Positions 37,608 to 60,810 of a stretch of DNA of 64,000 bases are shown piece by piece. How positions within the stretch are numbered: position 1 is the first letter of the stretch; each line of letters begins with the position of its first letter. This DNA is from a virus. Under the pieces are notes generated by a model. The model was not told where the DNA came from. It saw only the letters and a list, made by a program, of their open reading frames with translations, and did not search any database. Both the position numbers and the translations under genes were made by a program. Where the stretch lies: positions 1 to 64,000 of IMG/VR virus record IMGVR_UViG_3300012348_000111; one strand, 5' to 3'.

Positions 37608-40600
37608 TTAATTATCAAGGTCATCTTCGTTCAACTTTTCTATTTTTTTATCACTGATATTTCCCATTATACTTACTTTAGGTACAAATGGCAAATCTTG
37701 ACCATCCCATTTGTTACCAGATTTAGAAATATCTCTTCTCTTTTTTGTATAATTAGAAATTAAATTATTGATTTTTTCATTTGTTTCTTTATTGTCTTTA
37801 CCTAATGCTCTATTTATTCTTTGTTTTTCTCTTAATACTTTTATTTGTTTTTTAAATTGTCTTTCAAGAGAAGGTAAAGGTAATCTAGAAGGCATTTTTT
37901 CAATTTCATAATCTTTTTTGAATCTAGTTTGAAGATTATTACTATATGTTTTAGGCATATAATCATTGATTCTTCTGTTATTAAATTCCATTGCATCAGG
38001 ACTAATATCTACACCTCTTAAACCAAGATATTCAATTGCACCTACAGCCAATGCTGGTAAACCAGCAAGAAAAGGATGTGTTTTATCCCAATCTATTTTA
38101 GATTGATTCCAACGATAATAAGGATCCATATTAGTAAAATCATCAAGGTCCTTAAAGTATCTTCCTAAAATACCCACTGGTCCTGATAAAGCACCAAACA
38201 GTTTATCAGCGATACTAATACCGTTACTTTGTTCAATATAGTAAGTGTAAACAGCTTCGTTCATACCCCAAAGAGTAAACGCACCTTCTACTTCGTTTAC
38301 TATACGTTTCATAAAGTAACAAGCATAGTCTGCCCAATCAGCTTCTCCATCTTCTTCACAATTTGTTGCTTTCTGAAGAGCTATTAAAGTATTTACCATA
38401 GCATACCATACAGCAGCATTTAATGTTCCTTTAACTACTCCACCTTTAACTGCTTGAGATGACGTTCTATAAGCAGCAAATACATTTCCATTATAACGAT
38501 AAGAATCTCTTATCAATTGGGTAAATGCAGACCAAGAGCCTTCTGTTTCAAAACCAGCACCATAGTGAATAGTCGATCTACCGTAAATAGATTTTATATC
38601 ACCTAACACCCATTTCTTTAAAAATAGAACTAATTTTCCTAATGTATATCTGTTTGCTTCTGGTTGTGACATAGAATCGTATACACCTTGAGATCTTCTT
38701 ACAGCAACATAAATTTTATTTCTTACAAATTGAACTAGGTTGTCAAAGTTTTCTCCAAGTTCTACATCAGGTCTAGGCTGTAAAATACCATCTTTAATTT
38801 CAAACGCATCTTTTAAAGTAATAGTTTGATCTGAATCTTTTAATTTAACTCTGTATTGATTTAGATAAGCAAATCCAACCTGAGCTGCTATTTCAAATTC
38901 AGTATATTCTCGTATAGTATTTACAATCGATAAAACATCTCCATACTTTCTAAGACCAGTGTTGCCTGCTTTTTCACCTTGAAAGAAACTTTCTTTTTGT
39001 TCTACTCCAAAATAATCTAAAAGTTGTAAAGACTTAGGTTTGTTTCCTAATTGCCCATGATACAAAAAGAAATCTTTAGAAGCCATAGTAGCGTCTATAG
39101 TTCCTTTACGTAAACTACTAAGAGTTATACCATGACTTACGACATTTATAAGATTTTGTTTTAAACCTGTTACTAAGTTCTGAGGAATAGATAATAAGTT
39201 ATACCCTAATGATTTTCTACCCGCACTTGCTGTAGCCATTCTACTTATAGCATTAAAAGATTTAGATAATTTATCAGTACCTTTTAAAGACTGCCCGTAG
39301 AATAGTTTTTCAATCATTTTATCTATTTGGGTTTTATCTGATTCTGCAGTTGTTTTTTGACTAGCACTTAATACAACAGCTTGCATTTTTCTTAATGCTC
39401 TAAATTGATGCGATGCTCCTCCATAGTTAGCAATAGCTCCCAAGATATCATCTGATTGTTTAGATACGTCTAAAGGTTTTGCAAAACGCATAAAGATTTT
39501 TCTACTTTTAGAAAGATTATCAGTACCATAATCTAATTGAGAAAAATCAGATTCTTGTTCACCATAGCTTTCTTCTATATCAACATCTTGATCGCTTCTT
39601 GCTTGCCACCAATTTTTAACATTAGCCCGCCAAGAGCTAAAAGGATTACGTCTAAAACTAACAGCATCTATAAATCTATCTCTTCCAGATTTAAGTTGAC
39701 CTGGAATAACATCTCCTAATCTATCTTTAGCATAAAGACCCTTTTGGTTTTCCAAATGAAGACTTCTTAAATCATTTACAATAGACTTTTGATTATCTGT
39801 TAATTTAGAATAATCTTTATTAAGGTAAGGTCCACTTGTAACTTCTTTAAATTGTACTTGACCTTGTTTATAATTAGGATTTCTAAACTTAGGATTAACA
39901 ACAGCTCTATACCAATTGAATCCTGGTTGATTCTTTTCTACAAAATCAGGATTATTAGGTCTTGTTACACGCCAAACAAATAGTGGCTCATATACTTGTA
40001 CCATTGTTTGTGTATCGCTATCCCAACGATTCTTTAATATGTGATTATCTTTATACCATTGAGAATTAACATATTGTTGGTGAACTTGTCTATTAAGTTC
40101 TTCTTCTGTTATACTTGGATTCTTAGATACTATTTCAGATCTTAATTCATTTTGAATAGTTTCTTTGGTTTCTGTATAGTAAGAAGATACTGCAGTAGAT
40201 TGCAATTCGTCTAATTGTTTAAATAAAGGAAGAAGCTTGGTTTTTATATCAGCATCTAAAGGACTTCCCTCTTTCATCAATTGTTTGATACTTTCAATAC
40301 GTTGTTCTATTTCTTTAGACTTTGCAATAAGTTCTTTAGAATAATTAGAAGGTATATAGACACCACTTGTGTCTTTCTGACCTTTAAGTATGTTAAAGAG
40401 TTCTTCGTATTCTTTGGAGATATCCCCCCTACCTTTTAAATAGTATGAAATACCATCTAAGATTCTTTGTCTCTGATCGTAAAACTCTTGTTTATATGTA
40501 ATCCTTACGTTAATAGAACTCCAAGCATCAAAAACTTCTTGAGCTACTCTTCTTTCTTCATCTGTAGTAGCTTTACTTAAATTGTTTTGATAGGCTTCAA

Positions 40601-43496
40601 ATTGTTTTTTATATTCAATTTCAAAAGCTTGTCTTGAAGCGTCTGTTAATTCATAAGAAACTAACTCTTTTGCTTTTTTATCTTTCTTCCACTCAATAAT
40701 AGCTTCTGCATCTTGTAATGCTTTACCTGTTTTCTTATTACCTTTAGAATCATAAAGTCTCTCCATATCATCAAGTTCATATTGAAGAGTTTTAATTGAT
40801 TCTATAATAATAACATCATTTAAAGAATTACCATCAAAGTTACCTATACCTATTTGTTCTCTAAGAGAGTTTATTTTAGTATAGATTTCATTTCTACGTA
40901 TAGCGATATCTTCTGGGAGAGATTCTGATATTTGATAATACTCATCTGTAAACGGTCTTTCAGTATAATTTTTATAGAAATCGTTTATTTTCTTAGTAAG
41001 TTCTAGTTTTTCACTTTGTTCTGTAGCTTGAGATAATGCAAACTTAAGTTTAGTTATTTCGTTTTGAAGAGCAACTGTGTCTGTTTGAGTGTTTAAAGCT
41101 AAAACTTTTATTTTCCTAAGTTCATTTTCTTCTACGTAAAAATAATCTACTTCTCTAGTAACAAAGGAGTACATCTTATGCCTGTCTATAACAGCTCCAA
41201 ATGTTTCTCCGTTTTCTTTATTAATTCTTTCTTGAATTTTTTGAAGACGATTATTCATATTTTGTAGTTCAGGAATAACACCTTGCATTCCTTTTAGAAT
41301 ATAATCGGCTACAATTCTTACTGTAGGAGTATCTGTTAAGAAAGCACTATCAAAAGATTGTTTAAACCAATTGTTCTTGCTTTTTGGATCTAGAAGTAAA
41401 TTTTTTATGTCTTCAGGACCTTTAGGTAATTCGTTTAACCTTTTATTAATTTCTTTTATTTTTTGAGTTTTTGCTTGAGCAGGTATATTTTCTTTTTCAA
41501 TTTGTTTAATTTGATTTTTTAATTCAAAAGTCAACTCATCTATACCATTTTTAATACCAGCATAAAGTTCTTCACTTAAAGGTATTAGAGTACCTCTATT
41601 TGATTCTTCTTTAATAATATTAATCGTATCTTGAATTACTTTAATATTATAGAATACTAAATTGTTGTTTCGTTTCTGTCTGTCTTCAGTGGTAATTGCA
41701 TCTATAGTTTCCCTTACTCTTTCAGGAAACATATTTTTTAAGGCATTTATTTGTTTTTCAAAAGCTTCAGCTTGTTGATTTGCAAAATAAAGTGCTGATA
41801 ATTTAATTTGAGAAGGTAGTTCATCGTTTTCTTTATTTTCTCTTATCCTATGAACGACATTTCTTAAATGAAGATTCGATGTTGTTAGATAGTTAGCAAG
41901 CTCGTAGTAAGCTTCTGCTACGTCTTCTTTAGTTACAAGATTTTTAATTTTCTCTAAAGACTTTGCAGATTCATCTAGAAGTTTACTTTCTCCTTTTAAT
42001 CTTAATTTTTTAGTAGAGAAACGAATAGCATTTAAATCTTTGTCTGTTATTTTATCAGCTAATGTTTTTACTTTTTCTCCAAAAGACTGTTGTTCGTTAG
42101 TAGGTAAAAGTTCTATAGCTTCTTTAAACATTCTTCCTTTATCTTCAGAAGTAAAACGAGAAAACATATATTCAGCAAACTCTGGACTATATTGTTTTTC
42201 TATTAAATCTACTTCTTCTTTACTTAAAAGACTGTCTACTAAGTTACCAATGTTTGTTTTTTCACTTACTTCAAATGAAAAAAGATTTTTAAAATAGTCG
42301 TATATTTTTTGCCAGATAGTTTTAGAATCTCTATTTCTATACTCTACATCAGCTTGTTTTCCTAATTCTGTTGTTATTACCTCTTCCCAGAATGAATCAC
42401 TCAATCCATATTCAGGATATAAGGCCTTTACAATAGCATAGGACGAACTTATTGGATTGTCCTTATGTAAGTCTTCAATTTCTTTTTTAAGTTCGTTAAA
42501 TAGCTCAGGATTGTTTTGTCTAATACTTCTTACTAAGATGTGACCAAATTCATGCCAAGGTGTTTCACTTGTTATAAGGTTCGGATTAAACATTATTTCT
42601 CCAGTAGTTAGATTGATTTTAGCTACTTGATCTAAATAAGGATTATAAGACCAAGTTGTTCCTTTAAATTTAGTGCTTAGGAAATTTATTACTTTACTAA
42701 ACTTTTCAAATTGAGGATTATTTACAGCAAGTCCTGTATGGAATCTAGAATCAAACCATTGACCATCGAAAGGTAATACTTCACCATCAACAACAATAGT
42801 ATTAGATTCTTTCATTAAATTTAAGAAGTCAGCATCTTGATTAGCTAATGCTTCAAGAGCCTGCATTGCTTCTATTTCTGCATATAATGATTCTTCTTGA
42901 ACTTCATCTATAACTTCAATTAGTTTTTCATAATATCTATTGTTAACTGTAAGAACAAGTTCGTAACCACCATCTTCCAAACTTTCTAGTTTTGCTACTA
43001 CTGGTTCGTGAGTAAACCCATAGGTTTTATTTAGATTTGTTGCAATAGCATATGCATACCCTCTAAAGTTTTTATATGATTTATTTTTAGTGTCACCTCT
43101 AAATGTTTTATCAGTAGGTTTTATAAATACTCTATATCCATCTATTGTAACTGATTCTCTAGATTCTAATGGTCTTATTTCCCTATCAAAAATTAATCTT
43201 TGAATATATTTAGATTTTTGTGCAAGACTAAGCTCATTGTACTCTATATTGTTTGATAATTCTAAAATTAAATCTTTTACTTTTTCTTGCTGTAAATATT
43301 TAGAAATGATTTGTTCTTCTACTTGTTTAGAGTACATAGTAGAACGCATTTGTTGAGAAACAAAGTTCTTAAATCCTTCTATATCTTGTTTATTACCTAA
43401 AAAATTACCAGCAAACTCAAAAAAATGAGATTTAAAGTATTCATTAAACTCTGATTGAGAGTATTTTTTATTATTATATGTTATTATGCAAGCCAT
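37608..43496 (-). CDS. giant virion cargo/ejection protein (1962 aa) with zincin HExxH motif
   Basis: TPWHEFGH..EEVIT (42554-42540); helical body; hydrophobic C-region; MACIITY N-terminal module. Confidence 0.7.
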   Translation of the reverse strand: MACIITYNNKKYSQSEFNEYFKSHFFEFAGNFLGNKQDIEGFKNFVSQQMRSTMYSKQVEEQIISKYLQQEKVKDLILELSNNIEYNELSLAQKSKYIQRLIFDREIRPLESRESVTIDGYRVFIKPTDKTFRGDTKNKSYKNFRGYAYAIATNLNKTYGFTHEPVVAKLESLEDGGYELVLTVNNRYYEKLIEVIDEVQEESLYAEIEAMQALEALANQDADFLNLMKESNTIVVDGEVLPFDGQWFDSRFHTGLAVNNPQFEKFSKVINFLSTKFKGTTWSYNPYLDQVAKINLTTGEIMFNPNLITSETPWHEFGHILVRSIRQNNPELFNELKKEIEDLHKDNPISSSYAIVKALYPEYGLSDSFWEEVITTELGKQADVEYRNRDSKTIWQKIYDYFKNLFSFEVSEKTNIGNLVDSLLSKEEVDLIEKQYSPEFAEYMFSRFTSEDKGRMFKEAIELLPTNEQQSFGEKVKTLADKITDKDLNAIRFSTKKLRLKGESKLLDESAKSLEKIKNLVTKEDVAEAYYELANYLTTSNLHLRNVVHRIRENKENDELPSQIKLSALYFANQQAEAFEKQINALKNMFPERVRETIDAITTEDRQKRNNNLVFYNIKVIQDTINIIKEESNRGTLIPLSEELYAGIKNGIDELTFELKNQIKQIEKENIPAQAKTQKIKEINKRLNELPKGPEDIKNLLLDPKSKNNWFKQSFDSAFLTDTPTVRIVADYILKGMQGVIPELQNMNNRLQKIQERINKENGETFGAVIDRHKMYSFVTREVDYFYVEENELRKIKVLALNTQTDTVALQNEITKLKFALSQATEQSEKLELTKKINDFYKNYTERPFTDEYYQISESLPEDIAIRRNEIYTKINSLREQIGIGNFDGNSLNDVIIIESIKTLQYELDDMERLYDSKGNKKTGKALQDAEAIIEWKKDKKAKELVSYELTDASRQAFEIEYKKQFEAYQNNLSKATTDEERRVAQEVFDAWSSINVRITYKQEFYDQRQRILDGISYYLKGRGDISKEYEELFNILKGQKDTSGVYIPSNYSKELIAKSKEIEQRIESIKQLMKEGSPLDADIKTKLLPLFKQLDELQSTAVSSYYTETKETIQNELRSEIVSKNPSITEEELNRQVHQQYVNSQWYKDNHILKNRWDSDTQTMVQVYEPLFVWRVTRPNNPDFVEKNQPGFNWYRAVVNPKFRNPNYKQGQVQFKEVTSGPYLNKDYSKLTDNQKSIVNDLRSLHLENQKGLYAKDRLGDVIPGQLKSGRDRFIDAVSFRRNPFSSWRANVKNWWQARSDQDVDIEESYGEQESDFSQLDYGTDNLSKSRKIFMRFAKPLDVSKQSDDILGAIANYGGASHQFRALRKMQAVVLSASQKTTAESDKTQIDKMIEKLFYGQSLKGTDKLSKSFNAISRMATASAGRKSLGYNLLSIPQNLVTGLKQNLINVVSHGITLSSLRKGTIDATMASKDFFLYHGQLGNKPKSLQLLDYFGVEQKESFFQGEKAGNTGLRKYGDVLSIVNTIREYTEFEIAAQVGFAYLNQYRVKLKDSDQTITLKDAFEIKDGILQPRPDVELGENFDNLVQFVRNKIYVAVRRSQGVYDSMSQPEANRYTLGKLVLFLKKWVLGDIKSIYGRSTIHYGAGFETEGSWSAFTQLIRDSYRYNGNVFAAYRTSSQAVKGGVVKGTLNAAVWYAMVNTLIALQKATNCEEDGEADWADYACYFMKRIVNEVEGAFTLWGMNEAVYTYYIEQSNGISIADKLFGALSGPVGILGRYFKDLDDFTNMDPYYRWNQSKIDWDKTHPFLAGLPALAVGAIEYLGLRGVDISPDAMEFNNRRINDYMPKTYSNNLQTRFKKDYEIEKMPSRLPLPSLERQFKKQIKVLREKQRINRALGKDNKETNEKINNLISNYTKKRRDISKSGNKWDGQDLPFVPKVSIMGNISDKKIEKLNEDDLDN

Positions 43497-44128
43497 ATTT
43501 GATTATTTTTTATTTTATAAATTGTTGTAGTTGAAACATTAAACTTATTGGCTAACTCTTTTACTGGTTTATTAGAACTTCTAATAAAAGAAACTTTATT
43601 CCAATTCAATTTAGCAGAATTATTATTTTCTCCTTTTTTAGATTCTGATAAATCTTTGGCTCTCTTTTGAGCAGCTAATTTAAGGTTTAATTTATGTTCT
43701 TCTGAAAATATTTTTCTCTTACCAGATTCAGACATTTTATTTTTAGTTTCTTCTGAAACTGTAAATCCATAACCTCTTACAGCTTTACCTTTTCTTTTTT
43801 CTGACATCTTTTGTTTAGTTTCATCTGATGCTTTTAAACCATAATTACTTTCTGCAATTAATCTAATATTAAACTTATTACTATACTGGTCTAAAAACCA
43901 CTGTTCTAATTTGATACAATATTCAGAAGGACAAGTAGCTAACACTTTAAAATCTATATTCTCAATTCCATATTTGTTTACAAAGTTTTGTAAGAGTTTG
44001 TTTACATGAAAATTAGACCTTAATTTATCAAAATGTGTTTTCTTTCTTAAAGAAAGATTAGTTGCAGAGCCTATATAAACTCTATCATCTATTTTAGAAA
44101 ATATTCCGTAAACTCCTGAATTTAACAT
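43484..44128 (-). CDS. GIY-YIG homing endonuclease with NUMOD3 and HTH
   Basis: SGVYGI..VYIGSA..R..H; ETKQKMS repeats; C-terminal HTH. Confidence 0.9.
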   Translation of the reverse strand: MLNSGVYGIFSKIDDRVYIGSATNLSLRKKTHFDKLRSNFHVNKLLQNFVNKYGIENIDFKVLATCPSEYCIKLEQWFLDQYSNKFNIRLIAESNYGLKASDETKQKMSEKRKGKAVRGYGFTVSEETKNKMSESGKRKIFSEEHKLNLKLAAQKRAKDLSESKKGENNNSAKLNWNKVSFIRSSNKPVKELANKFNVSTTTIYKIKNNQIWLA

Positions 44129-44913
44129 ACTCTATCGATTTTACCAGTTTCTATTAATCTGTTTTCTATTTGCATAGAAGACTTACTTATAATAAATTGT
44201 CTAAATTGCTCATAAGTTCCATATTTAGCAAATTCACTATTTTGAAAAGCCATATAATCTTTGAAACCTTGAATATCAGCTTTAGATGAAAGTATGTAGA
44301 TTTGTTCTGGTTCAAATACTATATATTGATGAGCAAAATCTATATCCCCTACTATTCCATTATCAGCAAGTTTATCTATAGTTCTCAGTACCGCATCTCC
44401 TTGTCTATCCTGAGCCTGGGGATTATCAACTAGTTTTAAATTTTTAGCATTTAAAATCGCAGAAAAAACCTTTGCTGTTTTAACTGCATTGTATTCTTCT
44501 AAAGATTCAAACTGACTAAAGTCTATAGAACCTTCTGCATAAAAATCTGCAGTTTTTTTACTATCAGTAAAGTAAATTCCTTGGGTAGATTGTTTTGTAT
44601 TTTTACCAGCTTGGTTAATATCAAAACTATCAAAGCGACCATCAGGTGTTCCATGATAAACTATTTCTTTTACTTGGCTGGTTTTAAAAATAGTAGAAAG
44701 ATATTGCATGTATTGAGCTTTAGTACCAATAGCTGCAAGGTCTGGTGACTCTTTAAATACACTATCAATAGCTTCCATTTTCCTTTTAAATGAATCTATA
44801 ACATCTTTATTTTTACTAATAGATGTAGCAAATTCATTTTTATTATTAATAAAGTATTCTTTAAATTTTTCTTCAGAATACTGTTTCCCTTTATATGTTA
44901 TTATACAACTCAT
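44122..44913 (-). CDS. ADP-ribosyltransferase-fold (ART-PolyVal-like) protein
   Basis: VYHGT, FDSFD, GIYFT, QYIVFEPEQI. Confidence 0.75.
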   Translation of the reverse strand: MSCIITYKGKQYSEEKFKEYFINNKNEFATSISKNKDVIDSFKRKMEAIDSVFKESPDLAAIGTKAQYMQYLSTIFKTSQVKEIVYHGTPDGRFDSFDINQAGKNTKQSTQGIYFTDSKKTADFYAEGSIDFSQFESLEEYNAVKTAKVFSAILNAKNLKLVDNPQAQDRQGDAVLRTIDKLADNGIVGDIDFAHQYIVFEPEQIYILSSKADIQGFKDYMAFQNSEFAKYGTYEQFRQFIISKSSMQIENRLIETGKIDRVC

Positions 44914-45575
44914 GCTTTTTTCCAGATTTTATTATTTTTAATTTGGTTTATGGTAGCTCTTGAACAACTAAATAATTCTGCTATTTCTTTATCTGTTTTA
45001 CTACCCACTAAAGATTTAATTTTTTTAACTTGTTCTATTGTAAGTTTAGAATATTTACCACCATTGGCTTTGGCTTCTTTCATTTTTTGTTTAGTTTCTT
45101 CACTTATTATTCTACCAGTTAATGCTTTACTCATTTTATCAAGAGTTTCTTGTGAATGAGTGTAATTACTTCTATCTACTTTCTGTCCAGTTTTAGCTTT
45201 GCTAATATTTAACTTAGCTTTTTCTGACATTTTATAACCTCTTTTTCTGTTTGCAGGAGGTCTTCCTACTGTTTGAGCTAAGTTTAATTCAGGTTTTAGT
45301 TTATCTACAAACCATTGTTCAGCTTTTAATAAATACTCTTGTGGGCATTTAATTAGTATTTCAAATTTAAGATTTTCTATTCCTAATTTTAAACAAAGTC
45401 TTTGAAAGTATCTATTAAAATGTTTTTGTTTTAGTATAGCTCTGTTGTGAGCTTGTAATCTTTCTTGTAAATTATTAGTAGAACCAATATAAAATCTGCT
45501 ATCATTATCAAAGTAAAGTTTATAAATAGCACAAACTCCTGTATATTGCCCTCTTTGTAAATCTTTTACGAACAT
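44910..45575 (-). CDS. GIY-YIG homing endonuclease with NUMOD3 and HTH
   Basis: AIYKL..FYIGST..R..H; HSQETLDKMS and SEETKQKM. Confidence 0.9.
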   Translation of the reverse strand: MFVKDLQRGQYTGVCAIYKLYFDNDSRFYIGSTNNLQERLQAHNRAILKQKHFNRYFQRLCLKLGIENLKFEILIKCPQEYLLKAEQWFVDKLKPELNLAQTVGRPPANRKRGYKMSEKAKLNISKAKTGQKVDRSNYTHSQETLDKMSKALTGRIISEETKQKMKEAKANGGKYSKLTIEQVKKIKSLVGSKTDKEIAELFSCSRATINQIKNNKIWKKA

Positions 45576-46339
45576 TGTTTATCAATTATTTTTTGAGATT
45601 TTAAATCATTTAACATACTATTATACAAATTGTCATCTATTTCTTCAACTTTACTATCAGGAAAGATAGTATCTAAATATGCAGAGTATTGTTGTATAGC
45701 TTGTTGTTTCTGTTGGGGGCTTATTTGTTGAATTTCATCAGAAGTTTTAATTCTAAAAGCTCTTTCTTCTGTACTATATCTACCATCTTTTTCAACTCCA
45801 TAATCTCCAATTTTTTCAGCAAATCCTTTTTTAGTTAATGCCAATAAAGTATTTATTTCAGCTTTTGAGTTATCAAAATCAGAATACAGTGTATCTCCAA
45901 ATTCATTTTTAGCCCAATCTGCAACAAGAGTATGAACTATTTGCCCATAACCTTGATTTTGGAACTCTTCATTTAATTTAATAGATAAACCTACTTCTTT
46001 ACTTCTTCTATCATTTTTTACAAGTTTTACTTCACCTATATTTTTTCCATTAAGTTTTATCCATTTCCAACCATCTCTTTCTTTAGTATCTAAAGATATA
46101 CCTTTAGTATTAAAACTTTTAAATCCTGAAGCTTCATACACAGCATTAGCTAACTCAGGATTAGATTCAAATAGTTCTACAATACCTTCTTTAATAACTG
46201 CGTTAGATAAATTATAATACTTAGCGGGAACTTCTCCTTCGTATTTATCCCATAGATAATATGCTAGATCAGGATGAACTTGTTCTAGTTTAGTAAATTG
46301 TTCTTTTATTTTAGGATCAGATAGATTTGGACAAAACAT
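45566..46339 (-). CDS. GNAT acetyltransferase-domain protein
   Basis: IKLNEEFQNQGYGQ (acetyl-CoA motif A), L.SD..S..L.KKG; promoter TATATTTG at 46367-46360. Confidence 0.7.
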   Translation of the reverse strand: MFCPNLSDPKIKEQFTKLEQVHPDLAYYLWDKYEGEVPAKYYNLSNAVIKEGIVELFESNPELANAVYEASGFKSFNTKGISLDTKERDGWKWIKLNGKNIGEVKLVKNDRRSKEVGLSIKLNEEFQNQGYGQIVHTLVADWAKNEFGDTLYSDFDNSKAEINTLLALTKKGFAEKIGDYGVEKDGRYSTEERAFRIKTSDEIQQISPQQKQQAIQQYSAYLDTIFPDSKVEEIDDNLYNSMLNDLKSQKIIDKQCS

Positions 46340-46383
46340 TTTTATTTAAATTAATATTACAAATATAGTTACGAAGTAAACTT

Positions 46384-49300
46384 TTAGCAATTATCCTTAT
46401 TCTTTTTGTTTTTATTTCTAATAGACATGAATGAATCTTGAGCTGCTTGATTGTATTCGGCAGATAGATCTAGTTGTTCAGAAACAATAGAAATAGGTGT
46501 AGTAGATTGTGTTTCAGTAGTAGCGGTATCTACTTCTTCATCTACTTTAGTTATTGTTTCACCATTAGATTTAGAAGGAGTAATATTTGGCCTACTTAAT
46601 ACGTAGTCTTTATAGAAGTTTAAGTCAGGATTAATATCTTTAACTTTTGCAAACTCTGGGTGATTTTCTCTAAAACGTTTAGTAAACTCACTTAACTTAG
46701 CTCTTTGTTCTTCTTCTGAAAGATTTGCAAAGTTTTCCAAGACAGTACTCATTGGATAAGTATAGATCTGTTCTGGGATAAGTGGTAAGTAAGAGTCAAA
46801 CTTTTTGTTTAATTGAGAACCCAATATACCAGCATAAGCAAAGTTCTTAAAGAATGTTTGCATATTTTCTATAAGTTGAGTATCTACTACTGGATCTAAT
46901 TGGGGGTGTGAATAATTAAACCCTTGATTAAACTGTTCTCTATAGAAATCTACACTGTAATCAAAAGAGTTTTGCTTTAGTCCTGTTCTTAAGAAGTTAG
47001 ATTTTTCATCTGTGTTAAAACGAACTAAATCAAAGATTCTATTTTGAGAAGTAATTTTCTTTTCAGCTAATTTCTTCTTAAGATATTCATATTGAGCTTT
47101 TAGATTTTTAGAATTTCTTTTATCTAGTAAAGATTCATATTGAATAATATTTGGAACTTCATTGATGTACATTGAATACAAGAAGTCATTCTTAAATACT
47201 CTAGATAAAGTTTCGTATTGTAAAAATTTATTTTTCTTCGCATATTGCTGATGTAGCTTAACAATACCATCTGTTACTGTTTTACTAGCTGATACAGGGA
47301 ATATCTCAACAAACTTATCTAAAACAGATGTTTGTACTTGGAATGGAGATACTACAGATTCAAAAATAACTTTATCGAATGCTTCTTCTTCAAAGAACTT
47401 TTCTTCTTTTAACTTTAATAGTTCACCGTCATTGGCTCTAAGTGATTCAAAGTTTTGAGGAGACAAAGTATCAAAGTCTGTGTTGGCAGAAAGTCTACGA
47501 ACTTTATCAGCTTGATTTTTCATTTCAAGGAAAAGACCTAATCTGTAAACATCAGAAATAACGTTTTCTTTAAATAGTCCTTTTAGAATAGTTTCAGTAT
47601 CGTACTTTTCTACAAGACCTCCTATTGTTAGGTTGATAAATTTCTTTTCTGAATATCCAAATTTACTTCTTGACTTTTGAACTATGTTTTTAATTGTTGG
47701 ATCTTGAATTTGTTCAACAATATTCATTATAGAACCAAAGTCATTTAACTTACTGTATTGAGCAATAAGAGAATCTTTACCTTTTTCTGAACTCATGTTA
47801 ACCAAGTTAACCATTGCTTCAAAAGGTGTTCCCAACATAGTAGCATAGTTGACAATAGGTGTTACTACGTTATTAAAGTTGATTAACGCAATTCTATCGT
47901 CTTTCTCAATATCTACGTGAGCACTAATCATTTGACCCTGTACAAGAGAAATAGGTTTACCTTTAGTATCTTTAGTTCCTTCAAATGTTAAGTTACCTTC
48001 TACTCTATTTGCAGGAAGAACATAGCGACTATTAGCTTGTTTGTCTACAATAGTCAATTTAGCTTTCTGTAAGATAGAATGAAGTACGTTGTTTTTAGCA
48101 TCTGTACCTAAAGCTTTCTTATATGTGTTAAGAGAGAATACATAAAGCTGATAGTTAGGATTAACTATGTTTGTGTAGTTTGCTTCGTTTGTAGGATTTT
48201 TAGTTAAACCATCAGCAGCTTTTTCTATTTCAGAAATAGAGTTAGGTGTAATTAAGTCTTCAAATATCTCTTCGTTAGTTAAACGATCAGACATATTAAA
48301 TAGAATGTTATTAGAAAATCTATTTCTTATTGCTTTTAATTCGTTTTTACTATCTGTTAACTCTTGATAGATTTCAGCCAAAGCGTCATTAGCTTCTTGA
48401 AGTCTAAAACTAAGTTTGGTTTCAGAATAATCTTGAAGAATAGAAGAAAGATTTTTAAGTTTAGCTTTTCTTTCAGCAAGTTTAGCTTTTTGATCTTTAG
48501 ATAAGTTCTTTTCAAGAATTTCTTTTCTTGATAAACCATTCTTAAACTTATCTAAAAGCATTTGCTTAGCATCCATCTCTTCATCTACTTCTACATCACC
48601 TTCAAACTTTTCAGCTCTAAGTTGTTTAAGTTGTTTGTAAACTTCGCTTACGCTTGAAATATTTTTAGATTTTAAAAACTCTTCTATTTCATTAAGAGTG
48701 TTTTGTTTTTCTTCTAAGTACTCTTTTACAATTTCTTTATTTGTTTGAATATCTAAAGCTAATTGTTTTTTGCGAGCAAACGCTTCTTTAGGTGTAAGAT
48801 TGTTTGTCATTACGCTTCCATCAGCTTCGATGAAAGGATCGTAACAGAACAACTTATCAATATCATAGTCAGAACCAGACTTAACAACCATCTCATCAGG
48901 AACTAAAATAATATCTCCTGTTTCTTCAGGTAAGAATTCTACTATTTCAAAACTTTCAATAGAGTTATATCCTTGTCCTGGAATACGAATAGCTACAATG
49001 TTTAATTGTCTTTCGTATTGTTTTCTAAAAGCAGGATCATTTAAAGCCTCATTAAGACGTTTTAAAGCAGTATGAGGATTGATGGGTTCACCTTTAGCGT
49101 TTAGTTCGCCTATAGGGCTTCCATTGTACTCTAAATTAAAAAGAGGATAGTAAAGCTTAGAGAAAGAAATCATTATTTCTGCTTTTGTTACCTTTCCGTC
49201 TTTTAAGTCATAGTACTTAAGTTTACGATCACTCATTAAAGATACAGGAAACTGTACTCTTTGAGCACCATTTACTTTTTGTCTAATAACTTTGTTTTTA

Positions 49301-52300
49301 ACAGAAGATACAATCGCACTTTCCATTACTGTTCTGTCTACTAAAGCGTCTAATAAGTATTGTAGTTTACCATCTTCTTTTATTTGAATTAAATCTTTTG
49401 TTGCTTGTGCAGCACCTTTACGGGATAATTCACCTACGATAAATTCTACAAGCTTTTCTTTATTGTCAAGTTTTTCTAAGAATTCGTTTGAATCGTATTC
49501 TACTAAGTTCTTAACGTAGTTTCTATAAAGTTCATATGCTTCTAATTCAGCATTTGTAGTTGCATCTTTGTAGATAAGTTTTCTTAACTGAGAAGAGAAT
49601 ATATTTTGGAAAGATTCTTTGTTTTCAACTATTACTTGTTCTTTAAGATATTTGATTTCAATAATACCTGGAGCACTTGGTGCAGTATCTACTTGACCAT
49701 CTTTAAATAAATCAATAGCTGGAACTGTTTCAGCAATCTTAGTTCCACTACTAAACACACCATAGTCTGCTCCTGAAGCATAAAGCTTAAATAAAATATC
49801 AGCTGCTCTAGGATTAGTTACTGCCTCTGAAGGAAGTAAAGGTTTAACTGAGTACTTATGGAAGATAGGAATAGAAGGACCAAATATAGACTGATTGTTT
49901 CCTGCATACTGAAGTTTCTTTACACTAAACTTAAATTTAGGTTTTTGGTTTAAAAGATTATCTAATTGTCTTTGAAGCATAACTGCTTCATACTGATTAG
50001 CATTCTTTAGTTGAAGATAAGTGCTCCAAATATTATTTTGGCGAGTAAACTCTTCTTCCATATCTAAAGTAATACCTGTAGACGTTGCATAGAATCTTCT
50101 AAAGAAATCCATAGTAGCTACAGACGCAGCGTCTTGTGCTTTAGAATCTTTATCTTTAGTGTAAGCGTCTCTTACTTTATCGTAAGCTGATGATTGAGCT
50201 GTTTCAGATACTACTGGATTATCATTAAATACTAAGTAAGAAAGTTTAGTAGGATCTTTAGGCAATACATTAATAGGAAGATTATTTTCTATTGCGTATT
50301 GTTGAAATGCTTTTTCTTGAGCATAAGAATCGTTTTCTACATTGTTTAAAGCAGCTACAGTAGTTCTATCCATATTGGTATATGTACCATAAGCATTCCA
50401 TGCAGACAAACGTTTCTCGATATCTTTAGCGTTTTTATAGTAGTAAGGATGATTAAAGAATAGTTTGTGTTGCTCTACACGCATTACAAAAGAATAGAAA
50501 TGATACTTAGCAAGTTGTTCGTTTGACAGATTGTATCCAGCTAAAGTGTCTTGACTTACTTCTACGTTGTTATTAAGATACTCGTTAAACTTAGAATAAA
50601 CTTCTTGAGCATAACTAAGTTTTAAGAAAGCATCTTCAAGTGTTGTGTTAGCAGGAAGTTCTTTAAGATCATTTATAAGACTTTGTTTTAAATCAGGACT
50701 GTCGATAATTTTTTCAAAGTAAGCAAGTTTTACATTTTCAAGTTTAGATTTAAATAAATTTTGATTAACCTTGCTATTTTGAGTGTCTATTTCTGATTTA
50801 AGAATAGGAAGAATGAATTGTGAAAATAAACGGAAGTCTATTCTTACTTCATTTTCTTTAGTAAAAGTGTATTCAATGTTGTCTGATTTAGCAAGACCTA
50901 AGAACTTTCTAGCTGATAGATCTAAACCAATACCTCTTGTTGTACTTTTACCTGATAGACGATTTAATTCTTCCACACCACCATTAAGTAATCCTACTAT
51001 GTCAGCATAGTGTTTCATGCTTGACAGAGAGTCAATGGTTTTTTCTCCATCAAATCCGTCTTCAATACCTAATAAGTTAACGATTTCAACTTTTCTAGGT
51101 TTACCGTTTTCAACTATTCTATTACCAGCTACATTAAAAAGATATTTTAATACCCAAGATCCTCTAGCGTTGGTATTCATTGCTTGATTCAAATGTGGTA
51201 TTTCTTTTTCTACATCTTCTAAAGTTTTATAGTTGGTACTATCATTCAAGATAGATAGAACTTTAGTCATGTAAGTATGTTGGTTAACACTCCATATTTG
51301 CTTTCCTACAGCATTATAACGCATGTCATTAGCGTATGTAGGGTTAGCATCTATTTCAAGATTTAAAAAGTAATTAACAGCACTTACTTCGGATTTAATT
51401 TTACCTGTTTCAGTTTTGTGTTCTTTACTTATTAAACCTAAAGGAGTAAGCATAGGTGTTCCTACATCAGAAAGAGATTTAAGTTTAGTTCTAATTAAAT
51501 TTAAGTTTTGAATTACTGTTTCTGGTTTTTCAGTTCTTAATGACTCCAGACCTAAAGAAGTATAGTTTAAACCTAAAGCTTGTAATTGTAAATAAACTTG
51601 ATCATAAAATCCTCTTAACGCATCAGGATCTCCTGTAGGAATGGATGGTGTCTTTTCAAACATACTAAAGAACTCTTCAGTATTTAATGCATAAGAACCA
51701 TTAGTAGTCAATACTTTAAATGGACCAGCCTCTGTATAGAAATCAGAATCTAACTGACTTCTTAATTGTACAGCATCTAATGAAAGTGCTTTAAGAACTT
51801 TAGTTTCTGTAATATTACCTTTGTCGTCTCTTTCTATTTTTACAGTAGAACCGTCTATGTAAGGCATAGTAAAGAGATTAAAGAATTGTACTTTAAATGC
51901 TAAATCTGTAATTCTTGTTATTGTATTATCAGCTTTAGGTAAGTAATCTAAGAAGGTATTAAATTGAGGAAACTTAACAGCAACTTCTTTGATTTTATTG
52001 TACATTTCATTGTACGTATTTAGTCCTGTTAATTCTCTTTGTAGAATAGTCCAGTTGCTTTCAAAATCACCAAGTAATGCAAAACCTAATACGGGATCAG
52101 TTACTTTTTCAGTTCCTTCATATCTAGGTAGTGTTCGTATAGCATTAATGATTACATCACTAGCCATATCTTTTTGAGACATTTCCTCTATAGATTTTTC
52201 AAACTCACCTATACCTTCATTCTCAGGTTCGTTAAGTACTTCATCTATAGCATTAAGAATGTTTGTAGACTTAATTTTATTGTCAAAAAGAGTAGAGTTA

Positions 52301-55300
52301 TTTTTATGAAAGTCTAAGATAGTTGCAATATTAACTATCTTTAGAGCTAAGTGATCTACTTTTTCAGCTTGATTAAAGTCATCTGGGTTCTGCTCAAGTA
52401 TTTCATATTCTTCTTGATATACAGTATCTAGATATTTTACTACGTTTTGATAGACTGTCTTTACTTGTTTAGGATTAAGAAGTACGTTTACTACACTTGC
52501 GTTGTAAGGCTTAAGGATAGCATTTGCAATATCTACAAATAAGCCATCAAACTCTTCTATTGTTTTTTGTGTTTCTGTATAAGAAAGAGCAAGAGGTTGA
52601 TCATTCTCATCTAAGATAACTAGTTTAGAAGAGTAAAGCTTTTTAAAGTAAGCGTTTTGTTCGTTACGTTTATAACGAGTAATGTTTCCTTTGTAAAGCT
52701 GATCAAAGTATTTATCTACTGTTTTTTTATCAGAGATTAAGTTAGTAATGAAGTCCCAAATCTTTTGAAAGATAGATTTAGTCTCTTTGTATTTTGCAAT
52801 CTCAGAAGGTATTGTTTGTCCTCCTGTTAAAGCATATTGACGGAAAGACTCAGCAATCTTTTCTTCAAGTTCCACAAAAGGTAAATCTCCCCATATCTTA
52901 CGTGCTTCAGAATAAAGTTTTTCTTTCTGATCACCATTAAGATATAATTGAGAAAACTCATGCCATGCTTCGTGATAAGCTTCTGCATAGTTAGCACCTT
53001 CAAATAATTGAATACCTGCTTTAGACCATATAGCATATGCTTCTGGATGAGCAATGGTAGTATCAAATATAAAAGGTGTATTCTTAAATATAGGATGACT
53101 TTCTACCCAAGCTTTAGCTGCTTCGTTTTCTTGTTTGGTTATTTTGTTAGAAAGTGTTCTAGCTCTTTTTAATGAATTAGGATCTATACCTGCGTCTTCA
53201 CCTCTACCTTTTATTTGAGAATTTGCACGTTCTATTAAACTTCTTCTTTTAGATACTGGTTTATTTTCTACTACAGGTTGAGTAGATTGTTCTAAAGCAG
53301 CTAGTTCTGCGTCGTACTTATCGTCTATCTGCTGACTTGTTAGGAACTCATTAAAACCCTGGTCAATAAATTCCGTAAACTGAATAAAACTTCCTTTAGT
53401 AAATCTTAATACTTTATTATTATTTACTTTAGTAATAATTGCTTTTCCTATCTGTGCATTACTCATACCTTTAATACGAGCTAGTTTGATAAAGTCATTA
53501 ATAGCCTTTAATCCTTTTTCATACTCTTCTTGTATTTCAGAATCAGACCAATCCTTGAATACAGAATTGGGATCTGTTTCTCTATCAATTTTAGCACTAT
53601 TAACGGTTACAATTACTCTAAGTCTTACACTGTTTGATTGTTCTTTTTGTCTTCTTGTTTCTATCTCAGCTTTAGCGTCTATAGATTGAGTAGATTCTTC
53701 TTTAGCTAAAGGATCTACAATGTTTTCTTCTACATCTTGAACAGACTTAGATGTTTCTGGTTGAGTAGGAACCATAGGTAAAGGTTGTTCAGCCTTTAAG
53801 GTTTTTTGCCAATCTTTTTTAACAGTGGCTCCAAAGTCAGAACTTAATACAAATTCTTTATATGTTTTGAACTCTTTAATAGTAGGTTGACCATTTACAA
53901 ACATAATTGCTTTGAATGGTTGTTCACTATTAAGTCTATTTGCAAATAAAGGTTTACGTATTTCTGTTTTAGATAAAAGTTCTTTTTGAGTAGACTTACC
54001 TATTACTTTAGCTTTTCCTTCTGGAGTAACAGCTTTAATATTAAGTTTATCACTATCTCTATTTTTACCAATAAAGAATTGACCTTGAGGAAAGTATCTT
54101 AATGTTTTATTTTTTCTTTCACTAAAGAAATTGTCAGCTATAAGTTCTAAAAACTCCTGCGGATCTGTAGGAAATTCTTTAGGAAGAGTTCCATTATTAA
54201 ATGCTTCAACTAGGTTAAAAAGATTACTACCCTCTACTTGAGGTAAGTCTATACGACTATAAGGATAGATAGCACCTTCTCTTTCTAGATAAACTGCTCC
54301 CTTTTCAAGAGTATATTTATTTCCAAATGGTGATTCTCTTTCTATAGTATCTGCTATATGAACATATACTTTTGATTTATCGTTTACTAAGCCAGCTAAA
54401 GGTACCGCTTTAGTCGTAGATGTTCCTTCTGTGCCAGTAATTGTAGCTAACACAGGAGTGTTGTTATTAGTAATTGCTGTTACTTGGTCTTTAGCAGGAC
54501 CTGATTTTAAAGGTGTAATTAACGGTGCTCCTGTTTCAGATGTACCTATATAACCTTCAGGAGTAAAGTAAATTACTTCTCCTTCTTTATTTGTAATTAT
54601 AGTTAGAGCTGCTCCTTGATTATTTACAGCTGCAGGGTTTTTAGCAAAAAAGTCAATAAAAGCTTGATCTACTATTTTGATACCATTAAAAGTAAATATA
54701 CTTTCTAGTTCTTTTTTCTGTTCTGCATTAAGTGGTTTCTTTTCGTTAATAAAAGATTCTACTCTTCCAAATCTTTCTTTAGATAGAATAGTTTTTAAAG
54801 TATTTAAAGGTAATTGAATTAGAATAGCAACATCAGCATTTGCACCACCTCTTATTTTATTATCTATTACTTGAACAATATTTAATGCTCTTAAATTGAA
54901 TGGGTTTTCTGTTAGTCTATCCTGTCTATCTAATTCAACAATGTTTAACTGTAAAGTATTTTTATTTACAGCTTGGGTTTTATTGTCTTCTTGTTGATTA
55001 AGTTCGTTTTTATGATTAACGTTATTCTCTTCTATTTCAGATTCTGTAGGTTTACTGTCTGAAATAGTATCTCCTTCTTCTTCTTGTTTATCAACTTTTT
55101 CTTGTTCTTTAGGTGTTAGGTTATTTTTCAAACCCATCATACGAGTTTGAAAGTCTTCTAGCATTACTACAGGAAGAAAAGAAGTTCCTTCTAAACTAAA
55201 GTTAGGCTCATTAGAATAAAGAGAATCAAAAAACTTTGTAATTGCTTTCTCTTCACCTGGAAAGAATCCTAACATTGCTGCTTCAGCTTCAGCTAAAGAT

Positions 55301-58300
55301 TCTATTTCGGGATTATTTATTAGGTAATCAAAGAAGTCTATTCTTACACCACTATTGAATTTACTAGTTTCTACTTTTCTATCTTCTTCAGATTCTAAAG
55401 GTACTAACTGATCTTCTAAAGATTCCTGAGTTCTTAATCTTTCGTTTCTAAATTGATTATAAATATCTTCATTTAATGGTCTTTCAGAAACTACTACAGT
55501 TTTTTCTTCTTTGGGTTCTTTACTTGATGCAGGAGTAAATCCTCTTTCAAAAGGTTTTTCTTCTTCAGTTGGTTTTGATTTTTCTTCTTTAGGTTCTTCT
55601 TTAGGTTCTTCTTTCTTCTCTTCTTTTTTACTTTCTTCAGTTTTAGAAAGTTCTTCTTTAATTTCTTTATCTGTAACAGGTTTGATATTAGCTTTATCTA
55701 GAATAGATTTATTAATATCTTTTATTACTGTTAAAGATTCTTCTGGAGTAAGACCTTTAGTAGAAAGTTCATAAAAATTATTAGCATATTCTCTATATGC
55801 TTCTAGTTGTGTTTTTTTGTTAGGGTCTGTTTCTTTTGATGCAGCATGTCTTTCTAACATATTACCTAACAATAAACGTTGAGCATCTGTTAAATGTTGA
55901 TGTGCATCTGCTTCTAACTGACCAGATTCTAATTCAGCTTGAGATAATTCAGCCGATGTCATTACAGCAACCTGTGCATCTTTAGTTTCTGGATTAGTTA
56001 AGTTAAATGAACCTTCAGCTATAGATTGATCTCTATCTAATTTCTTTCTTGTTTCTATTTCACTATTTATAAGATCAATTAAATCTTGTTCATAAAAATT
56101 TTGAAGTTGTGGTCCTGATGTTGGTACAAAAGGTGCGTTAATAGCTTCTTGTCTTTTAGATCCTTTATATTGTTGTAAGAAAGGTATAAAGTTTGTTTTT
56201 GCTAATTCGAGTTCAAGAAGTGTTAATTTTTCAGGAGACTCTTCTAGTAGTTGTTGAAAACCATCTAACCTATCTGCAACTGTAGCCTCTACTTCTGTTA
56301 TAAACTTATCATATTCAGCACTTATAAAGTCTTGTCTTTCATCTTCTGGAGATACTAGAACTCTATTTACAGCTGTTTGATTTAATGTGTTTACAAGCGT
56401 TGTTAGGCTATTATCTGAACTAGTGGCCGTCTTAGCTTGTTTAGCAAACATATTAGAGATAATGCCTTTCTTTTCTTGTTCAGTAAGACCTACGTATTTT
56501 TCAATTCTTTTTTTAGAATTAAGAACAACATCGCTAGCATCTGAAAGTTGTTTTTCGTAAGCTGCTATTTGTTCAGGTGTAAAAGTAGAAGTATCAATAG
56601 AAAGTAAATCTTCTATGTCTTCTACACTATTAAAGTAATTGAACTGTGCGTCTCTATCGTCTAATAGTGTAGAAATATTCTTTAAAGAGTTTATATCTGT
56701 AATAGAGTCTAATCTTGTTTTTAATCCGTTTACAGCTGCTGTTCTTTCTACAGCCTGTTCTTTGGTTAATTTACCGTTTTGAACTTGTTTGTTAATAAAC
56801 GAAAGATATTGTTCAGGATTATTAGCTATATCCCATCTGGCTTGACTTCTTCTAGAACGAGAATCAAATGCTGCTGGAACACCAGAAATAAACAATGAAG
56901 GAATAAATCCACTTACAAATGTTTCTAATCCATTCTGTAAAGTAAGATCGTTTGATTCTTCTACTGTAAAGTCTTTACTTGCAGCATACTTATCTACAAA
57001 GTAATTACCTAGTAATGAAAATTCTTCTTCTAATGATTCCTGAACTGCACCAGATAAGGTTTTTCTAATAGCTGATGGTGCTACAAGTAAAGCAGCTTTA
57101 GTTGGTGATATTGCGTTTTTGGGCAATAGTCCTAATAATACATCACGATTGTAAGTCATTCGTGAAAAGTTAGTAGGATCTAATTTACCAGCTTTCTTAA
57201 GTAACCCGTCTAAAGGACCTAAACTTCTATCGGCTTTAAAGAAATCAGTATCGGGAATTATAGTTTCTGATAAAGCTTCTACACCAGATCTAAGCAAAGC
57301 TACATTACGAGCATCTCCATCATTTTTAAAGTTGTTTCTTTCTTCTGCATAAAATCTAGGAAATGTAGTAGCGAATGTATTACCAAAAGTAGATATCCTT
57401 GGAGCTACTTCTTTTAAAAATGTTTTTTGAGCAGTAGTAGATAGTCCAGCTGACTTACTTATATTAGACCAAGAAAGATTCATTCCTCTACCTGCAGCAC
57501 CTACACCTCTACTTAACAGAATTGTTTGAGCCACATCAATAGCTATAGGAAGTGTTTGTTCAGTTGCTGCTGATAAGTTCCAATGACCTTCTCCTTTTTC
57601 ATCTACCCAATGTACATTAGATACATATATAGGATTGTCTTGAGAATCTTTAATTACTTCATTAGATTCTATTAATGAGTTTTTATTTAAATCATTTACT
57701 CTACGATACTGTGGAGGAGCAAACGATTTAGCACCTAAGTTAAATCCAAATGCACCTACTTTATCTCCTGTTAAAGCTGCTATACCTGCTACTTGATTTG
57801 TAGCATTAGAAAGCATTTGTTCACCACCTCTATATGCAATACTTTTAGCTTTTCTAAGAGGGTGTTGATACCAGCTACTTGTCGCTAAATCATTATAAAG
57901 AATTTCTGATTTTTCTTTCTTTACTTCTTCTCTATATAGTTCAGGATAAGATAGCTTGTAAAATTCTTTTTTGTCCTGAAGTGGTTCAAGCTTTTTACTT
58001 AGATCTTTAGTGAAGAGTAGGTTTTCTTCAAGCTGTTTCTTTTGGTTTAAAACATTTTGATTATTAGGATCTTTTTCAAGTTGTTGATTTACTTCAATTA
58101 AAGATTGAGATAGTTCTTGTTCTTTATTTTTAGCAGCTACACCCATTAAATTAGTGTAGTTGTAGTTTATGTTTGCTAATTCAGTAACATATTCTTTTTG
58201 AGACTGTACACCTATCTTACCTCCTATACTTTGAGTAATAGGATTTACAGACATAAATTTTGCAAAAGTACTAGAACTAAATATAGGAGAAAGTTCTAAA

Positions 58301-59154: not shown

Positions 59155-60810
59155 TTAAGATTCGTCAGATTTTCTTTTTCTTCCTGAGAATGTTTCTATT
59201 GTGTTTGTTTGAGCTAAAGATTCTATATTTTTTAAACTAGATATAGGAATTGAAAGTAAATCATTTCCTGTTGCCATTTGAGTATCACCGTCTTTAAAGT
59301 TAACTACAAATGTTCTATTAGCTAATTGACTTGTATATTGATTTAAAGTTTTTTCATAATCTTTAATTTGAACAGAAGTTAAATCAGATTTATTTTGTAA
59401 AGCATCAATTGCTTCTTCAACATCCTCATTTATTATACCTTTATTTAAAAACTTAAAGAATTGAACAACAGCTTGTTTTTGATTTGTTGGAGCAACTCTA
59501 GTTGCTTCTTTACCCGCAATAACATCACCTAATACAAATTTGTCTATATCCATGTTAACTGTAGGATCTGAAAGAACCTGAGGAATTACAATTAGATCTT
59601 GAGTAGAAACATTACCCATGTTCCAAAGGGTTTCTTTTTTCTTTAGTAAGTTTTCAGGTTTAGCTGATTCTAATCTAGCTTTTACTTTTTCTTTTTCAAT
59701 ATCTAAGTTATTTTTCAAAACTTCAAGATTTTGTTTTTGAACTACATCCCAAACTTTATCATCTTTAAGATCTCTAGATACTTTTTGAGTAGTGTAAAGG
59801 TTAGCTAAATTAGTTACAAATTGATTTTGATATGTTTCAAAATAATCATTTGGATTGAATTCTTCAAACTTTTTAGATGAATTTTGTTTAGCTCCTAAAT
59901 AGTATTGAGATAGAACTTGAACGTTTTGTTTAGCGGCATCGATTTCTTTTTGTACAGAAGGTGATTTAACTCTAGCATTAGATGCTTCTAATATCGCAAG
60001 TTGCTCTTTTGCATTAGTAAGACTTTCATCAATAGCAACCATTTTAGTTGTTTGATCTTCTATGTACGACTGATATGCTCTCTGTGGTCCTAAAGCATTA
60101 TAATAATACTCTGTGTCTATTTGAAGTTGTCTAGCTGCTTTTGGATCAGTTGAAAGCATACCTTTGACTTTATTTGCTAACTGTGTTGTATTAAAACCCT
60201 GTTGAGTTATTTTTTCTATGTATCCAGTAGGTGTTCCTTCACCAACAGTATAGAATTCGTTTTGTTCTTCTTTAGATAATGTTTTAACAAAATCAAAAAC
60301 CTTTTCAGAAATATCATAAAACTCATCGTATTCTTTGTCTTGCAAAGATATACCTAATTTATTAGCACTTAAATAATCATTAACATCTTTAGTATAAAAC
60401 CAATCGTTAGTAGCAGATCTTTTAGAAGAATCTAACTCAGATAATGTTTTTTGTCTTTTCTGAATTATTCTACCATTTTTTACAGCATTGATAATGTTTC
60501 TGTCTTTTTCTAAAGGTTTACCTATACCAAGAACCGATTGAACATTTGCTTTTTTTGAAAAATCTAAACCAGCACTATCGTTAACAGCTTTAACCATGCT
60601 AGTCATGGTTTCATCAAAGTACTGTTGTTCAATAGGAGTATAGATTTGATTTCTTAACTCACTGTAAGCATCTATTTGTGACTGTACTTGAGTTACTCCT
60701 TCATCAAACATTTGTTGCTTATATAAAGCAACTTTAATTAAGTCTTCAGCTGGTAGTGGAGATATATAATCTGGGTATTCGAATTTCGTATGATTTGCAG
60801 AAATTGCCAT
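59155..60810 (-). CDS. virion cargo/ejection protein
   Basis: YISPLP.E....L..Q..FD N-terminus; helical; directly upstream of the RNAP. Confidence 0.6.
   Translation of the reverse strand: MAISANHTKFEYPDYISPLPAEDLIKVALYKQQMFDEGVTQVQSQIDAYSELRNQIYTPIEQQYFDETMTSMVKAVNDSAGLDFSKKANVQSVLGIGKPLEKDRNIINAVKNGRIIQKRQKTLSELDSSKRSATNDWFYTKDVNDYLSANKLGISLQDKEYDEFYDISEKVFDFVKTLSKEEQNEFYTVGEGTPTGYIEKITQQGFNTTQLANKVKGMLSTDPKAARQLQIDTEYYYNALGPQRAYQSYIEDQTTKMVAIDESLTNAKEQLAILEASNARVKSPSVQKEIDAAKQNVQVLSQYYLGAKQNSSKKFEEFNPNDYFETYQNQFVTNLANLYTTQKVSRDLKDDKVWDVVQKQNLEVLKNNLDIEKEKVKARLESAKPENLLKKKETLWNMGNVSTQDLIVIPQVLSDPTVNMDIDKFVLGDVIAGKEATRVAPTNQKQAVVQFFKFLNKGIINEDVEEAIDALQNKSDLTSVQIKDYEKTLNQYTSQLANRTFVVNFKDGDTQMATGNDLLSIPISSLKNIESLAQTNTIETFSGRKRKSDES

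Follow-up and report, generated by a model that had tools for sequence, protein, structure and literature searches.

Facing-end cysteines in the cargo block of a crAss-like phage, split at two junctions by endonuclease cassettes, may point to a disulfide-linked protein chain

Crassviruses pack more than 6000 residues of protein in a fixed order and eject them through a narrow tail, and on this order the crAss001 structure paper goes no further than to call it likely set by packing and mutual interactions (PMC10172136). A gene block of this kind lies in a stretch of 64,000 nucleotides (hereafter the window), positions 1 to 64,000 of IMG/VR virus record IMGVR_UViG_3300012348_000111, a genome of 105,101 bp in a single contig. 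Its sequence relationships identify this block as coding for the virion cargo of a crAss-like phage: a giant RNA polymerase (RNAP) fusion protein, a GNAT-like protein, an ADP-ribosyltransferase (ART) and a 1962-aa protein, whose few cysteines lie mostly at the facing ends of neighbors in this series. We consider it probable that these proteins make up a cargo chain joined by end-to-end disulfides, with endonuclease cassettes splitting the genes at linkers. The members of the block and the two homing endonuclease genes (HEG1 and HEG2) are listed below; coordinates here and throughout are window positions unless another sequence is named, and all genes of the block lie on the minus strand.

46384-59121, minus strand: giant protein, 4245 aa, a fusion of gp47-like and gp50/gp66-like RNA polymerase parts
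45566-46339, minus strand: GNAT-like protein, 257 aa, with Pfam GNAT matches slightly below the cut-offs
44910-45575, minus strand: HEG1, 221 aa, GIY-YIG and NUMOD3 homing endonuclease (PF01541, PF07460)
44122-44913, minus strand: ART-PolyVal ADP-ribosyltransferase, 263 aa (PF18760), with head A1 and tail arm 2
43484-44128, minus strand: HEG2, 214 aa, homing endonuclease with GIY-YIG, NUMOD3 and helix-turn-helix (HTH) domains (Pfam)
37608-43496, minus strand: last chain protein, 1962 aa, gp49/gp65-like (BLASTP), with head A2

The giant protein contains only two cysteines, at position 3426 and at its last residue (4245), with none in residues 1-3425, the fusion point included. The GNAT-like protein has exactly two, Cys 3 in a head of the 'CPN' type and Cys 256 of 257 residues; the ART also has exactly two, Cys 3 and its last residue, Cys 263; and the 1962-aa protein has Cys 3, 1713 and 1726. 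The outer ends of the chain, i.e. the N-terminus of its first protein and the C-terminus of its last, the 1962-aa protein, have no cysteine, and HEG1 has four, none of them terminal. All termini and cysteine counts given in the original prediction, which had described this series as a chain of terminal cysteines, proved correct, including the single further cysteine (3426) of the 4245-aa RNAP; the genes are not consecutive as it had presented them, with HEG1 standing between the GNAT and ART genes and HEG2 between the ART and 1962-aa genes. Together, the four chain proteins hold 9 cysteines in 6727 residues, against about 69 expected from the 1.03% cysteine content of the other 103 open reading frames (ORFs) of the whole 105,101-bp genome (binomial P about 7e-20). 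Six of the nine are placed at facing ends (joint empirical probability about 1e-9), and among the other 103 ORFs a cysteine occurs within the first 7 residues in three and within the last 6 in four. A chance origin of the end-cysteine pattern is excluded. As to the internal cysteines, Cys 3426 of the giant protein lies four residues past the DYDID motif (3418-3422), at a spot where phi14:2 g066 has no cysteine, and Cys 1713 and 1726 of the 1962-aa protein are spaced 13 residues apart.

The rule extends far beyond the window. Across 75 related IMG/VR loci and the window itself, 77 junctions have both cysteines, 38 have neither, 2 have only the C-terminal and 15 only the N-terminal one (Fisher P 2e-18). 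No endonuclease gene is present at 71 of the 77 junctions with both, and the terminal cysteines, on whose conservation the original prediction depended, are therefore conserved in homologues also where no endonuclease gene is found. ORFs of at least 800 aa in this survey (n=143) contain 0.07% cysteine versus 0.89% in the remaining ORFs, and 136 of their 232 cysteines fall within the terminal 8 residues. Exactly two cysteines, at position 3 or 4 and among the last residues, are found in 92 of 119 ART homologues, with the C-terminal one borne on 46 different 7-residue tails. The small enzymes and mini-proteins of 70-110 aa (see below) obey the facing-end rule as well, which fits the suggestion of the original prediction that effectors are plug-in cargo on a chain, and the numbers of C-terminal and N-terminal cysteines are balanced along the block.

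The same arrangement is seen in cultured phages. In phi14:2 the only cysteine of g067 is its last residue (1797), g066 has only Cys 3 and 2179, and g065 only Cys 3; in crAss001 the single cysteine of gp47 is Cys 2339 and that of gp49 is Cys 5, and gp50 contains three, Cys 5, 1334 and 2404 of 2412 residues. DAC15 follows the same rule, save for extra internal cysteines, of which gp076 has three and gp077 one. Since crAss001 (gp47) and DAC15 encode the first chain protein on the opposite strand, the rule belongs to the proteins and not to the local DNA. The pair of cysteines occurs with separate genes and is missing from fused ones, as in residues 1-3425 of the 4245-aa protein of the window and near residue 2780 of crAss002 gp33. 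The annotated start of the latter protein (NC_055828, locus L089, 9270-9380) precedes by 32 codons an M-S-C start in the same frame that fits the common 'CPN'-type head; its true start is probably Met33, which would give it an N-terminal cysteine to pair with Cys 2019 of the 2020 residues of gp32.

The relationship of the chain proteins to known cargo proteins was established mostly by BLASTP. The gp47-like part of the giant protein contains a zincin motif, HEAWH, at residue 2050, aligned with HEAFH at residue 2157 of crAss001 gp47 (E 2e-8), and the gp50/gp66-like RNA polymerase part contains the catalytic DYDID at 3418 (DxDxD motif), across which the matches are phi14:2 g066 (E 2e-10), crAss001 gp50 (1e-8) and crAss002 gp33 (5e-11); sequence searches of PHROGs, Pfam and PDB reported no match for the 4245-aa protein. 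A zincin motif, HEFGH, is also found at 315 of the 1962-aa protein, which matches the C-terminal part of crAss002 gp33 as well as phi14:2 g065. The ART is assigned to PF18760 with 38.1 bits (gathering cut-off 31.2), and its AlphaFold2 model (pLDDT 83) is matched by Foldseek with probability 1.0 to tankyrase/PARP catalytic domains, i.e. the ART fold; tblastn searches of cultured phages with the ART and with the C-terminus of the RNAP found no match. The GNAT-like protein scores below the cut-offs of both PF13302 (21.2 vs 25.4) and PF00583 (19.9 vs 20.7), with a QxxGxG-like motif seen. The GIY-YIG domain (PF01541, cut-off 22.6) scores 35.0 bits in HEG1 and 31.2 in HEG2; NUMOD3 is present in both, with 37.2 bits for PF07460 in HEG1, and HTH_7 in HEG2.

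A disulfide of the proposed kind has been seen in cyanopodophage A4, whose cryo-EM structure contains a Cys1715-Cys5 bond linking gp27 to gp26 and has the C-terminal helix of the former docked in a cleft of the latter; the authors do not generalise this observation (PMC12002296). In Anabaena phage A-4L, Cys 1715 of 1717 is the only cysteine of gp27 and Cys 5 the only one of gp26. A4 resembles the window in that consecutive ejection-protein genes have lone cysteines at the facing C- and N-terminal ends; it differs in having one link and not three and in lacking both small chain enzymes and endonuclease cassettes, and it belongs to a different phage family. BLASTP of A-4L gp25-gp29 against the proteins of the window, phi14:2, crAss001 and crAss002 gave no match at E 0.01. 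Also comparable are phi14:2 g067-g066-g065 and crAss001 gp47-gp50-gp49, which share with the window homologous polymerase core and zincin regions and the same facing-end cysteine rule, whereas the window has the first two proteins fused and genes for two small enzymes and two endonucleases placed in between. The cargo proteins of the cultured phages are virion proteins according to mass spectrometry (record notes; PMC10172136), and the three cargo proteins are known to be packaged in virions and to be fused into one polyprotein in some phages, in a study of gp66 that makes no mention of cysteine (bioRxiv 10.1101/2020.03.07.982082). The crAss001 virion has structural inter-subunit disulfides in its tail, and its description says nothing of this kind about the cargo ends (PMC10172136); the word cysteine appears in neither that description nor the gp66 paper, and neither reports an inter-cargo disulfide. 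Finally, the polyvalent proteins of Iyer et al. (2017), predicted to be injected with the DNA, also contain ART, acetyltransferase and zincin modules, which in the window are separate gene products with cysteine-bearing ends; that work names T4 Alt and leaves cysteine and disulfides unmentioned (PMC5512222). Our search of the literature found no description of a chain of cargo-end cysteines for Crassvirales.

At the two junctions where heads and tails look matched, each endonuclease gene is part of a cassette of roughly 1 kb:

44651-45695, minus strand: cassette 1, made up of HEG1 between a 23-aa tail arm (end: Cys-Ser-stop) and head arm A1, with one copy of the linker on either outer side
43350-44327, minus strand: cassette 2, made up of HEG2 between a 43-aa tail arm (end: Cys-stop) and the 32-aa head arm A2, with linker copies on the outer sides at ART 208-220 and at residues 33-45 of the 1962-aa protein

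Block 1 spans approximately the last 40 residues of the GNAT-like protein, HEG1 and the first 87 residues or so of the ART, and its limits are common to DNA homology blocks in L007, L009 and L092 (loci of the survey); block 2 spans about the last 67 ART residues, all of HEG2 and about the first 46 residues of the 1962-aa protein, and ten loci share a homology block with identical limits. Linker 1 is the conserved lead-in of the ART domain, with copies at GNAT 218 and ART 68, and linker 2 is of the 'GSK.DI.GFK.F' type, with copies at ART 208 and, in the 1962-aa protein, at residue 33; both are common in polyvalent proteins of these phages. A single linker copy inside one ORF, with no cysteine there and no arm sequence, is what cassette-free relatives show: L009, L010, L011 and L023 in the case of linker 2, and L010 along with dozens of giant ORFs in that of linker 1. 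On this comparison, each cassette is a unit inserted in a conserved linker of a polyvalent cargo protein, with duplication of the linker. One such relative, L010 (= L003), has a 1796-aa ORF (8831-14221 of that locus) with a zincin, the linker, an ART core and a gp49-like body; its ART core is nearly identical to residues 84-205 of the window ART and its flanks are much less similar, which suggests a recent exchange of the ART module between phages.

The genes of the cassettes are tightly interlocked. The ATG of HEG1 overlaps the codon of GNAT Cys256 and its stop overlaps the ART ATG (4 bases), and the ATG of HEG2 overlaps the codon of ART Cys263, with the last 13 bases of HEG2 overlapping the start of the 1962-aa gene; both tail cysteine codons share their TG with an endonuclease ATG. 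The two cassettes are paralogous, with 35% identity between the endonucleases, 49% between the heads and about one third between the tails (by reading of the two tail sequences), and this accounts for the matched look of tails and heads. The likeness of the Lx5ID[KR]xC tails and MxCIITY heads noted in the original prediction is accordingly real; its cause was sought in a docking code, and it lies in the arms of two paralogous cassettes. Two other kinds of element were considered and rejected: a group I intron (no Rfam match at E up to 1 in 43000-46600; the HEG ORFs overlap both neighbors and leave no non-coding DNA) and a split intein (no Pfam intein/Hint match; the arms have no His-Asn junction, and the cysteines are at the break point and not at extein junctions). 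Free-standing GIY-YIG homing endonucleases are known to split phage genes, and inteins carry endonucleases; the function of the host gene survives and the flanks are co-inherited. The window resembles these cases in the presence of a selfish endonuclease gene within a coding region and differs from the intein and intron cases in that any reconnection across the break would be made by a disulfide located there and not by splicing.

Heads of the A type are also found outside these cassettes. A profile of this head matched 206 clusters; of the best 150, 149 have the match beginning within residues 1-4, and it is never internal, and 108 of 109 new matches carry the cysteine. Twelve head-A proteins of 1300-4467 aa have Cys 3 or 4 as their only cysteine. 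The ESM Atlas contained no useful look-alike of the head. Many head-A proteins are stand-alone and only 70-110 aa long (e.g. L093 2481-2750, L097 883-1104 and L013 2317-2580; P0125-P0127, P0141, P0152, P0154, P0161, P0163) and consist of head A, the linker and a short tail, with exactly two cysteines, at position 3 and at the last or next-to-last residues; by their composition these mini-proteins look like adapters without payload.

We propose that in the assembled particle the C-terminal cysteine of one protein would be disulfide-bonded to the N-terminal cysteine of the next, by which the RNAP, GNAT-like, ART and 1962-aa proteins would become one thread of about 6700 residues that could leave through the tail in order and be freed by reduction in the host cytoplasm. 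Each arm of a cassette brings a cysteine, so that the insertion would be tolerated and the chain left intact by the split, and the small enzymes could thereby exist as separate links; by analogy to T4 Alt, the GNAT-like protein and the ART may be injected enzymes that modify the host. Several points weigh against this proposal. We infer the end-to-end disulfide or contact, in this phage as in any crassvirus, from sequence, and the packing of the GNAT-like protein and the ART in virions from the cysteine rule alone. The host cytoplasm is reducing, so any bond must form during or after assembly. The overlapping ATG forces the tail cysteine codon to be TGN, and its conservation at cassette junctions is therefore not independent evidence. 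The 17 junctions with a cysteine on one side only (15 N-terminal, 2 C-terminal) break the rule, and in L006, L009, L011 and L023 the tail cysteine is found 60-100 residues before the end of the ORF. The ends of the cargo proteins are left unresolved in the published crAss001 structure (PMC10172136).

The original prediction went further and proposed a docking code, i.e. that the types of tail and head are cognate binding modules that set the order of the proteins, with the cysteines only locking a specific non-covalent dock. The arms do exceed what a stop and a start would need: tails of 23-43 aa and heads of 32-65 aa are extra sequence missing from unsplit relatives, they are far better conserved than the payloads, and both are modeled with confidence in the ART (pLDDT 82-86 for residues 1-20 and 81-96 for residues 201-260). 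A docking role is hence possible, and the docked gp27 helix of A4 speaks in its favor. However, tail 1, HEG1 and head A1 occur together, as do tail 2, HEG2 and head A2, and the type of tail tracks the type of endonuclease and not the head alone. The tail directly followed by the head was found 0 times in IMG/VR or JGI metagenomes, as against 4 + 5 occurrences of the tail with the HEG2 start (0 vs 9), and 0 cysteine tails were found directly before head A1. Head-A-like N-termini of giant proteins in L033, L054 and L081 are preceded by unrelated tails with no endonuclease gene, and 'CPN' heads follow many different tails, including the Lys/Asn-rich one of the window. Adjacent DNA co-varies through linkage and orthology alone, and co-variation of tails and heads can therefore not separate a code from inheritance; a docking code cannot be told from the inheritance of one DNA unit. 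We consider such a code unlikely, and the specific pairing that the original prediction read from the two junctions finds no counterpart at junctions free of endonuclease genes. A related idea, somewhat less doubtful in our opinion, is that the arms of the cassettes could be dedicated re-tethering modules, docked and disulfide-stapled at the break point, so that a cassette could cut the gene of a cargo polyprotein at any conserved linker with the ejected thread unbroken. This would amount to an intein-like logic without splicing, and the domains of polyvalent proteins would become exchangeable, separately encoded links, the mini-adapters of 70-110 aa included.

Explanations with no chain at all, or with a different bond, have to be set against the same observations. 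If there were no tether, the end cysteines would be by-products of endonuclease insertion (the ATG overlap and hitch-hiking flanks) combined with a general avoidance of cysteine in ejected proteins. The TG shared by both tail cysteine codons with the endonuclease ATG, the arms that travel with the endonuclease gene and the entirely cysteine-free cargo proteins outside the chain would all agree with this. Yet the endonuclease gene is missing at the RNAP-GNAT junction and at the 71 junctions of relatives mentioned above, so that a forcing of all terminal cysteines by the ATG overlap is ruled out; no overlap forces the head cysteine of the ART; crAss001 and DAC15 obey the rule with the first gene on the other strand; the C-terminal cysteine is retained on the 46 different tails; and in A4 the disulfide is actually seen. 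Absence of a tether thus appears very improbable to us. Less far-fetched, if still quite improbable, are other partners for the cysteines: an intramolecular ring of Cys3 and the last cysteine, homotypic dimers, a metal bridge, or a bond with proteins of the portal or capsid. The exactly two cysteines of the GNAT-like protein, the ART and the mini-proteins would suit a ring, or one of these other bonds. Rings and the like do not explain why the first and last proteins have a single end cysteine that is always on the side facing the neighbor (the 1962-aa protein, the twelve head-A proteins, phi14:2 g067 and g065, A4 gp27 and gp26), why the C-terminal and N-terminal cysteines balance along the block, or why the pair vanishes in fusions.

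If the end-to-end disulfide chain exists, it would provide a concrete mechanism for ordered ejection, and injected small enzymes (ART, GNAT, kinase-like and others) would be predictable from sequence by the facing-end rule. The cassettes would be an example of selfish genes that interrupt cargo genes at linkers and leave the products joined, and they could serve as natural insertion sites for the tagging or loading of cargo in laboratory phages.

A few further arrangements deserve mention. In L006, L009, L023 and L011 an internal arm similar to tail 1 ends in Cys and is followed by a Gly-rich stretch up to a cysteine-free ORF end; next come an ORF of 360-650 aa, a GIY-YIG gene and a head-A protein. 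The interposed ORF has a YkuD L,D-transpeptidase domain in L006 and no Pfam match in L009 or L011. This exception to the chain rule may represent a further insertion within cassette 1. In L029 (11229-11242) a 3746-aa ORF ends without a cysteine and overlaps by 14 bases with the next ORF, whose cysteine is at residue 6; the overlap could be genuine or could reflect a frameshift error. Two more genes lie upstream of the giant protein:

59155-63331, minus strand: two proteins of 551 aa and 837 aa, assigned by position, outside the chain

BLASTP gave no match for these two proteins; they are placed where crAss001 has its cargo proteins gp46 and gp45, a likeness of position only. Together with a third protein of 674 aa (63576-65600 of the genome), they form a run of three consecutive proteins without cysteine upstream of the giant protein.

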